A program made the position numbers and the translations under genes. 6,394 nt of DNA from a virus. Its lineage: Duplodnaviria > Heunggongvirae > Uroviricota > Caudoviricetes. How positions within the stretch are numbered: the first letter of the stretch is position 1; each line of letters starts with the position of its first letter. Under the pieces are notes generated by a model. It was not told the origin of the DNA and searched no databases. It worked only from the letters and a program-made list of their open reading frames with translations. Of this stretch, positions 4,561-4,589 are shown one piece after another. The stretch lies in IMG/VR virus record IMGVR_UViG_2740892370_000006. One strand, 5' to 3'.

Positions 4561-4567
4561 TTAACTA

Positions 4568-4589
4568 CCGCCCTTTCGGGCGGCCTCCT
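4568..4589 (-). promoter_or_regulatory. SD (AGGAGG) followed by a 6-bp GC stem with GAAA tetraloop, placed between the SD and the AUG of the 57-aa gene
   Basis: On the minus strand: AGGAGG (4589..4584), then CCGCCC-GAAA-GGGCGG (4583..4568), then 7 nt, then ATG (4560). No U-tract follows on either strand, so it is not a canonical terminator. Confidence 0.4.

Follow-up and report, generated by a model that had tools for sequence, protein, structure and literature searches.

The closest described systems are two genes of phage T4. An RNA structure shortens the spacing between the Shine-Dalgarno sequence (SD) and AUG, in gene 38 from 22 to 5 nt and in gene 25 from 27 to 11 nt, and mutations that destabilise the structures at these split sites reduce initiation (PMC3014915). 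The T4 cases were the only ones that turned up in the literature on hairpin-bridged SD sites. Synthetic insulated ribosome-binding site (RBS) parts and bicistronic designs are self-contained initiation modules as well. At the DNA level, conserved boundary or linker sequences have reportedly been proposed for the exchange of lambdoid modules under the modular theory of Susskind and Botstein.

The locus described in this work lies on the minus strand of the window, that is, the whole stretch of viral DNA of 6,394 nt that was analysed. The minus-strand gene run is contiguous from 2407 to 6249. The neighbouring genes are DUF1627, DUF977 (Ren-like), phrog_1621, Ead/Ea22-like, and DUF968 (HNH), a set typical of the early or nin-like region in lambdoid prophages. 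The only sizeable intergenic gap within the run is 93 nt long (4561..4653), as had been stated in the initial annotation. The gap is bordered upstream by the phrog_1621 gene (4654..5067, minus strand) and downstream by a gene of 57 aa that belongs to DUF7167 / phrog_1997 (4387..4560, minus strand).

The downstream end of the gap consists of four parts in direct succession, all read on the minus strand. They are the SD AGGAGG (SD2; 4589..4584), an RNA hairpin (4583..4568), an A/U-rich spacer of 7 nt (UAGUUAA; 4567..4561), and the start codon ATG of the 57-aa gene (4560..4558). The hairpin abuts SD2 and is composed of CCGCCC (4583..4578), the tetraloop GAAA (4577..4574), and GGGCGG (4573..4568), which together give six G-C pairs. 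The linear distance from the SD to the ATG is 23 nt and becomes 7 nt without the 16 nt of the hairpin, so the spacer corresponds to the effective SD-AUG spacing. These readings of the sequence agree with what had been noted earlier, namely the AGGAGG at 23 nt from the ATG, the perfect 6-bp stem with GAAA that takes up 16 of those nucleotides, and the 7 nt that are left.

The 38-nt stretch with the hairpin was predicted to fold with -15.5 kcal/mol. ViennaRNA adds a closing pair between the last G of SD2 and the first base of the spacer (G4584·U4567), which extends the stem to 7 bp. The fold has a z of -2.8 against dinucleotide shuffles, with three of 200 shuffles folding as well. The hairpin was formed in all three context lengths (68, 123, and 131 nt), and partition-function folding of 62 distinct contexts gave it a median pair probability of 1.0, with GGAG, the spacer, and AUG about half unpaired. 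In the long form of the element, which is described below, GGAG is predicted to be unpaired with a probability of only ~0.5 because the upstream CCCUC can pair with it. The long-range pairings in the minimum free energy structure of the window (UUUAGCU/AGUUAAA and CAU/AUG) lack conservation among the other copies and were disregarded. A lone 6-bp stem within a gap of 93 nt would not, on its own, be beyond chance. The hairpin is taken to be beyond chance because it recurs in thousands of prophages at the same position relative to start codons.

The duplex of AGGAGG with the anti-SD was predicted at -10.3 kcal/mol and is the strongest in the initiation region. The sole other match to the anti-SD is AGGGCGGU (-7.8 kcal/mol), which is the 3' arm of the hairpin itself, and exposing this cryptic GGCGG inside the stem would cost 15.5 kcal/mol. 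The description of AGGAGG as the only good SD holds in the sense that nothing else is usable, but the gap does contain a second GGAGG (4617..4613) that is too far from the ATG. In the window, a strong SD is located more than 13 nt from the start codon and a usable SD is absent at the canonical distance. A stable local hairpin lies wholly between the SD and the AUG, in the window and in all contexts. The distance across the folded hairpin, 7 nt in the window, is within the 5-11 nt that would be expected of a split translation initiation region (TIR). A linear model would call the start at ATG 4560 nearly silent because the only alternative SD is locked in the stem.

The T4 gene 38 region was refolded from NC_000866 (UAAGGAG-AGGGGC-UUCG-GCCCUU-CUAAAU-AUG; -16.7 kcal/mol) and has a layout that matches the locus, which upholds the likeness to gene 38 that had been suggested from the window. 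In both, the SD abuts a GC-rich stem of 6-8 bp with a stable tetraloop, and an A/U-rich spacer of 5-7 nt then leads to the AUG, so that a linear spacing of 22-23 nt becomes one of 5-7 nt. The stabilities of both hairpins are similar (-16.7 kcal/mol in T4 gene 38 and -15.5 kcal/mol here). The loops are different, with UUCG in T4 gene 38 and GAAA in the cassette, and the two sequences are not similar. In T4, which is virulent, the site is single and specific to its gene, whereas the SD-hairpin cassette is located in temperate prophages, precedes at least six gene families, and forms a mosaic joint. The mechanism in T4 gene 38 has been proven by mutation, whereas the cassette is known here from its sequence and predicted fold. 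The gene 25 site of T4, at the gene 26-25 junction, also resembles the cassette in that a structure between SD and AUG shortens the spacing. Its structure is conserved only in close relatives (the T-even phages), and the cassette is likewise confined to Escherichia/Shigella prophages. The gene 25 site differs from the cassette in its greater size, its longer effective spacing, and its restriction to one gene.

The only ATG of the 57-aa gene is the one at 4560..4558. The Pfam match to DUF7167 (E = 7e-15) begins at residue 2 of the protein, and the match to phrog_1997 spans residues 1-57 of 57. The pN/pS of the gene is 0.26 among 31 distinct alleles from related contigs, which denotes purifying selection. 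The 57-aa ORF is regarded as a real, translated gene because of these full-length family matches and this pN/pS. An untranslated ORF or a closer start codon had been named beforehand as grounds for giving up the hairpin reading; the ORF has the marks of a translated gene and an alternative start is absent.

More distant homologues of DUF7167 are also present in two Klebsiella phages, ST512-KPC3phi13.3 and VLCpiS11a (the L180/L181 pair), and the hairpin is absent from both. The homologue in ST512-KPC3phi13.3 has an ATG that overlaps the upstream stop (TGATG) and a canonical GGAGG 7 nt upstream. The homologue in VLCpiS11a has a start that overlaps the stop as TAATG, and its only SD-like match is a weak GGGAG. 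The GGAGG-7 nt-ATG arrangement has the same effective spacing as the folded cassette and would argue for a split TIR at the latter.

The initial annotation had treated the hairpin arrangement as a one-off, which did not survive comparison with other genomes. The 80-nt stretch 4561..4640 was identified in 2604 of 5426 complete E. coli genomes, at 4249 places in total and up to seven per genome, and at least six families lie downstream of the hairpin. None of the 4249 places in E. coli has an annotated feature at the stretch. The BLAST search of the gap also identified the intergenic stretch alone in other phages where it adjoins different genes. In some prophages, two SD-hairpin units in the same orientation are located 1.06-1.7 kb apart before different genes (L020, L054, L094, L104, and L112). 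The anatomy of the element was obtained from four scans of viral contigs that were analysed by script.

In the scan of species-representative genomes, the element was restricted to E. coli and Shigella flexneri, apart from a single doubtful contig of a metagenome-assembled genome (MAG). The element is absent from the Rac prophage of K-12. The whole window was scanned against Rfam (E <= 1) and no family matched the element, the only match being a spurious miRNA elsewhere. The strings of the hairpin and the element, on both strands and in RNA form, are absent from the searchable literature. A 3-kb contig of a Collinsella MAG (L131; JAIHTM010000290.1) has an exact 22-nt match to the element, and its binning looks doubtful. 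The Actinobacillus phage vB_Apl-pPE4 (PP818812.1) carries this E. coli prophage sequence with 93% identity, and its host assignment looks doubtful. The exact 21-mer GGAGGCCGCCCGAAAGGGCGG at 11456-11476 of contig L140 lies inside a coding region (...QEAARKGG...) and was excluded as a chance match. That 21-mer sits in an ORF of 218 aa after an ORF of 401 aa, in an unrelated GC-rich contig that was judged P2-like from its ORFs only.

The protein families behind the hairpin number at least six and are unrelated, with zero hits at E <= 1e-5 in mutual BLASTP. The spacer between the stem and the start codon is 7 nt in DUF7167, 8-9 nt in the family that begins with MTELTKEQL... (ATG or GTG), 6 nt in MxxLFRK / MKHYLEK, 9 nt in MQDIKE..., 8 nt in MLTLKH..., and 11 nt in MGITKE.... 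Counted by copies, the spacer is 7 nt in 55, 9 nt in 19, 6 nt in 18, 8 nt in five, and 11 nt in six. Five families with 97 copies thus have 6-9 nt. If the 16 nucleotides of the folded hairpin are left out of the count, this distance is the usual optimum between SD and AUG. The 11-nt spacer of the MGITKE... family (UGGAGAUAAUA) holds its own GGAG at the canonical distance, and this family would act as a natural control. In each of the 117 copies that the first scan yielded, the SD is directly adjacent to the stem. The GGAG core in 117 of 117 is not independent evidence because the regular expression that recognised the copies required GGAG; the flanking bases were free and gave AGGAGG in 96 copies and AGGAGA in 14. 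The constant spacing of 6-9 nt could also partly reflect the placement of a recombination joint instead of ribosome geometry.

The conservation of the fold was assessed in 300 copies that were sampled via anchors leaving the 16 hairpin nucleotides unconstrained, and these copies comprise 27 haplotypes. All six pairs are kept in 84% of them and at least five of six in 96%. The remaining ~4% have only four of six pairs, yet the same gene lies downstream. The stem has six C and six G. C-to-U changes, which turn a pair into G·U on this strand only, account for 101 site-instances in 20 site-haplotypes, and the pair-breaking G-to-A changes account for 30 site-instances in 12 site-haplotypes. This bias modestly suggests selection on the sense-strand RNA. 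Four of the 13 multiply mutated haplotypes keep all six pairs, including the compensated CCACCC/GGGTGG. The copies contain one or two compensatory changes, and many full pairings are achieved through G·U. The pair count on 60 unique sequences is indistinguishable from that of shuffles. Such shuffle controls are uninformative and the covariation support is modest because the copies are ~95% identical. The stem does not evolve more slowly than its surroundings, and ~40% of the copies carry some stem change.

We lean towards reading AGGAGG-hairpin-spacer-AUG as a split or accommodated TIR of the kind described for T4 genes 38 and 25, by analogy with those genes and from the features of the locus. 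The GAAA-capped G-C hairpin is predicted to be very stable and would fold by itself on the mRNA of the minus-strand operon. The anti-SD of the 30S subunit would pair with AGGAG and leave the folded hairpin protruding. The AUG, 23 nt away in linear distance, would then be ~7 nt from the SD helix and could enter the P site. The SD/anti-SD helix may even stack on the stem, as the SD abuts it without a linker, which is pure inference. The unit of ~23 nt would be self-contained, with its fold kept whatever flanks it. It would serve as a portable start module before at least six unrelated accessory genes in the lambdoid prophages of E. coli and Shigella, and also as their exchange point. Ribosomes would use AGGAGG across the folded hairpin, and the hairpin would raise, not lower, expression. 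The T4-type bypass that had been proposed for the window, in which the distant SD comes to lie ~7 nt from the AUG, is partly supported in that it fits all the comparative evidence gathered. The mechanism of T4 genes 38 and 25 also appears to be the simplest way to reconcile the near-silent linear score with the conservation of the served genes.

The cassette occurs in a long and a compact form. The long form, represented by 4561..4661 of the window, consists in order of a stop block, an A/U-rich stretch, an orphan GGAGG with a CCCUC further downstream to which it can pair, a linker, AGGAG(G), the hairpin, the spacer, and the start codon. The linker is variable among copies (CAGAACAUC). The stop block CTGAATAATTAA (4644..4661, minus strand) is the 5' end of the long element and has a stop in each of three frames, namely TGA at 4660-4658, TAA at 4656-4654, and TAA at 4652-4650. 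The TAA stop of the phrog_1621 gene is located inside the block. The block lies within the inverted repeat CTGAAT/ATTTAG, whose helix (helix 1) is 87% paired, with one pair being G·U in 34 sequences and G-C in 24. At least five different upstream genes end in the stop block, and homology breaks just 5' of it. The orphan GGAGGG (SD1; 4617..4612) together with a weak hairpin AGGG/CCCU (4615..4612 with 4602..4599) spans 4598..4617 of the minus strand. This second helix (helix 2) is paired in 98%, a figure inflated by the search pattern, which left no freedom in the 5' arm. SD1 is absent from the compact form, and a start codon after it is lacking in the window. SD1 with its weak hairpin is apparently a part of the long form that is dispensable for the cassette.

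In the compact form, the upstream gene ends with ...SYHND-TAA and only 5 nt separate this stop from GGAGG and the hairpin, with the start codon 6-9 nt beyond. The common core is the SD plus the hairpin, ~23 nt, because the compact form occurs without any of the long element. The orphan SD at 4598-4617 (minus strand) was compared with contigs L002, L027, L060, L085, L103, and L112. Elsewhere, in P1-like and other contigs, the 16-mer AATCCTTAACCGGAGG is an ordinary SD of a small gene, whose ATG follows at 6-8 nt. The gene served by AATCCTTAACCGGAGG is ~75 aa long (MSNAQKVINAEKYNEW...SYHND) and is followed by the compact SD-hairpin module. The long form looks like a deletion of the ~75-aa gene because the order of AATCCTTAACCGGAGG, gene, and compact module is found elsewhere.

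Other functions for the upstream part were rejected. A uORF or leader peptide through the hairpin was discarded as the CTG is not conserved (CTT, CCG, or absent) and the frames are without a canonical start. A CTG-initiated frame had been suggested by third-position changes in one phage and was discarded as the substitutions in the linker are without codon periodicity. A promoter in the A/T-rich part was also discarded as the promoter scan was negative and candidate -10 strings vary among copies. The behaviour of synthetic insulated RBS parts and bicistronic designs should be independent of the neighbouring sequence, and the same should apply to the cassette. The cassette differs from bicistronic designs in that it is natural, has no leader cistron, and has a conserved start codon in none of the frames.

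The cross-tabulation of flanks shows at least eight upstream contexts and at least six downstream families in many combinations, with four-gamete configurations occurring repeatedly. On the 5' side, homology ends directly before GGAGG (in the long form, before the stop block), and on the 3' side it ends directly after GGGCGG. The unit is thereby a short conserved sequence between non-homologous modules that are joined in many combinations, which is what defines a lambdoid linker. It resembles the proposed boundary or linker sequences in that both of its flanks reassort. It differs from them in its apparent RNA-level function, with an SD and a structured spacer at a fixed distance from the start codon. 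The best reading of the sequence comparisons is that the SD-hairpin unit would be both a portable cassette and a mosaic recombination joint in about half of the E. coli genomes. Relative to the searchable literature, it is the portable-cassette and mosaic-joint nature of a T4-type split initiation region that is new. We also offer, tentatively, the broader possibility that the ~23 nt represent a natural standard part, that is, a self-folding, context-insulated translation-start module combined with a homologous-recombination linker for swaps of accessory genes among E. coli lambdoid prophages. Should that be the case, a gene recombined in behind the unit would be expressed immediately, and the companion stop block and orphan SD on the 5' side would complete a plug-and-play intergenic junction.

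The same mosaicism supplies the arguments for the strongest rival, which holds that the SD and hairpin are mainly a recombination linker at the DNA level, possibly as a recombination-prone GC-rich palindrome, and that the RNA hairpin is incidental or mildly inhibitory. The genes would then be translated weakly via the A/U-rich spacer or the cryptic GGCGG. The free reassortment of the eight contexts and at least six families with many four-gamete combinations, and the loss of homology right at the two edges of the unit (GGAGG on the 5' side, GGGCGG on the 3' side), are as expected of such a linker. The stem evolving about as fast as its surroundings and the non-significant covariation are also in line with it. 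A linker, however, needs neither a hairpin, nor contact with an SD, nor a distance of 6-9 nt from the AUG in each family. The substitutions are skewed to changes compatible with G·U on the sense strand only, and the cryptic SD is locked within the stem of -15.5 kcal/mol. We consider a mainly DNA-level role unlikely. A linker function is compatible with the split TIR and is not exclusive of it.

A second rival takes the hairpin as an operator for a trans factor, either an RNA-binding protein of phage or host or an sRNA, that would co-regulate and probably repress all the cassette genes in the manner of the coat protein at the MS2 replicase hairpin or N at boxB. A site between SD and AUG would be ideal for occlusion, and some prophages have two units within one operon, separated by 1-1.7 kb and each preceding a different gene, which would suit such co-regulation. 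The loop is GAAA in 95% of the 300 copies, which would fit a recognised loop, but the variants GGCA (4%), UAAA, AAAA, and GAGA are tolerated. A candidate binding protein was not identified, and the features of boxB and a match in Rfam are lacking. The initial annotation had considered the hairpin reminiscent of boxB. Lambda boxB resembles the cassette in its short GC stem, its GNRA-type fold, and its place on an early phage transcript. It differs in having a 5-bp stem, a GNRA-like pentaloop, and a boxA ~8 nt upstream, and in lying just after pL/pR, whereas the cassette has a tetraloop and occurs in multiple copies deep in operons. With a 4-nt GAAA loop, a stem of 6-7 bp, no pentaloop, and no conserved boxA, the comparison with boxB was set aside. 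No conserved boxA (CGCTCTTA-like) was found near the hairpin; directly upstream is the SD, and before that comes either a stop codon or a linker that varies. The window does have a boxA-like AGCTCTGTTAAAAA 60 nt upstream, but other copies have GCACTG or GAAGTG in its place. The prophage sRNAs of EHEC (AgvB, AsxR, and EcOnc) were discarded as they lie at the PR' moron site and not at the element. An operator is improbable in our judgement.

A role of the hairpin at the transcript level, be it as a pause or intrinsic terminator, as a target of RNase III, as a stabiliser, or as a processing site, is highly improbable: a GC-rich stem-loop does occupy the only sizeable intergenic gap, downstream of the Ren-like gene and at about the position of terminator tR2 in lambda, but a U-tract is absent after the hairpin on either strand and in any variant, the spacers are A-rich, a stem of at most 7 bp is far below the roughly 20 bp (about two helical turns) of duplex that RNase III needs, which also counts against the RNase III alternative raised earlier, and a 5'-end stabiliser would require a cleavage that removes the SD. 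The tails after the hairpin (UAGUUAAAU, UAAUGAAAAAU, or UAAGAAAUG) are without a U-tract, and the minus-strand scan gave zero terminators.

If the mechanism of the split TIR holds, split RBSs would be routine in the prophages of about half of the E. coli strains, including Shiga-toxin phages, and would be more than a curiosity of two T4 genes. Gene finders and RBS calculators that use the linear SD-AUG distance or penalise structure in the ribosome footprint would then consistently mis-score these starts. The cassette, with its natural variants at hand, would be a simple test system for the accommodation by the 30S subunit of a hairpin between SD and P site. It would also tie a translational device to the long-standing debate on conserved linker sequences in lambdoid mosaicism.

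Other features of the window lie outside the gap. A ParD-like antitoxin (1577-1897, plus strand; E = 2e-7) and a ParE toxin (1903-2202, plus strand; E = 4.5e-10) are encoded opposite to the minus-strand phage operon and represent a toxin-antitoxin pair inserted into the early region of the prophage. The match of the 58-aa ORF at 4209-4385 (minus strand) to phrog_519 is limited to the C-terminal portion of the latter (76-137 of 143). A related viral contig has a deletion that joins the initial codons of DUF7167 to the 58-aa gene (MRKFRKNKMADFGSTKY...).
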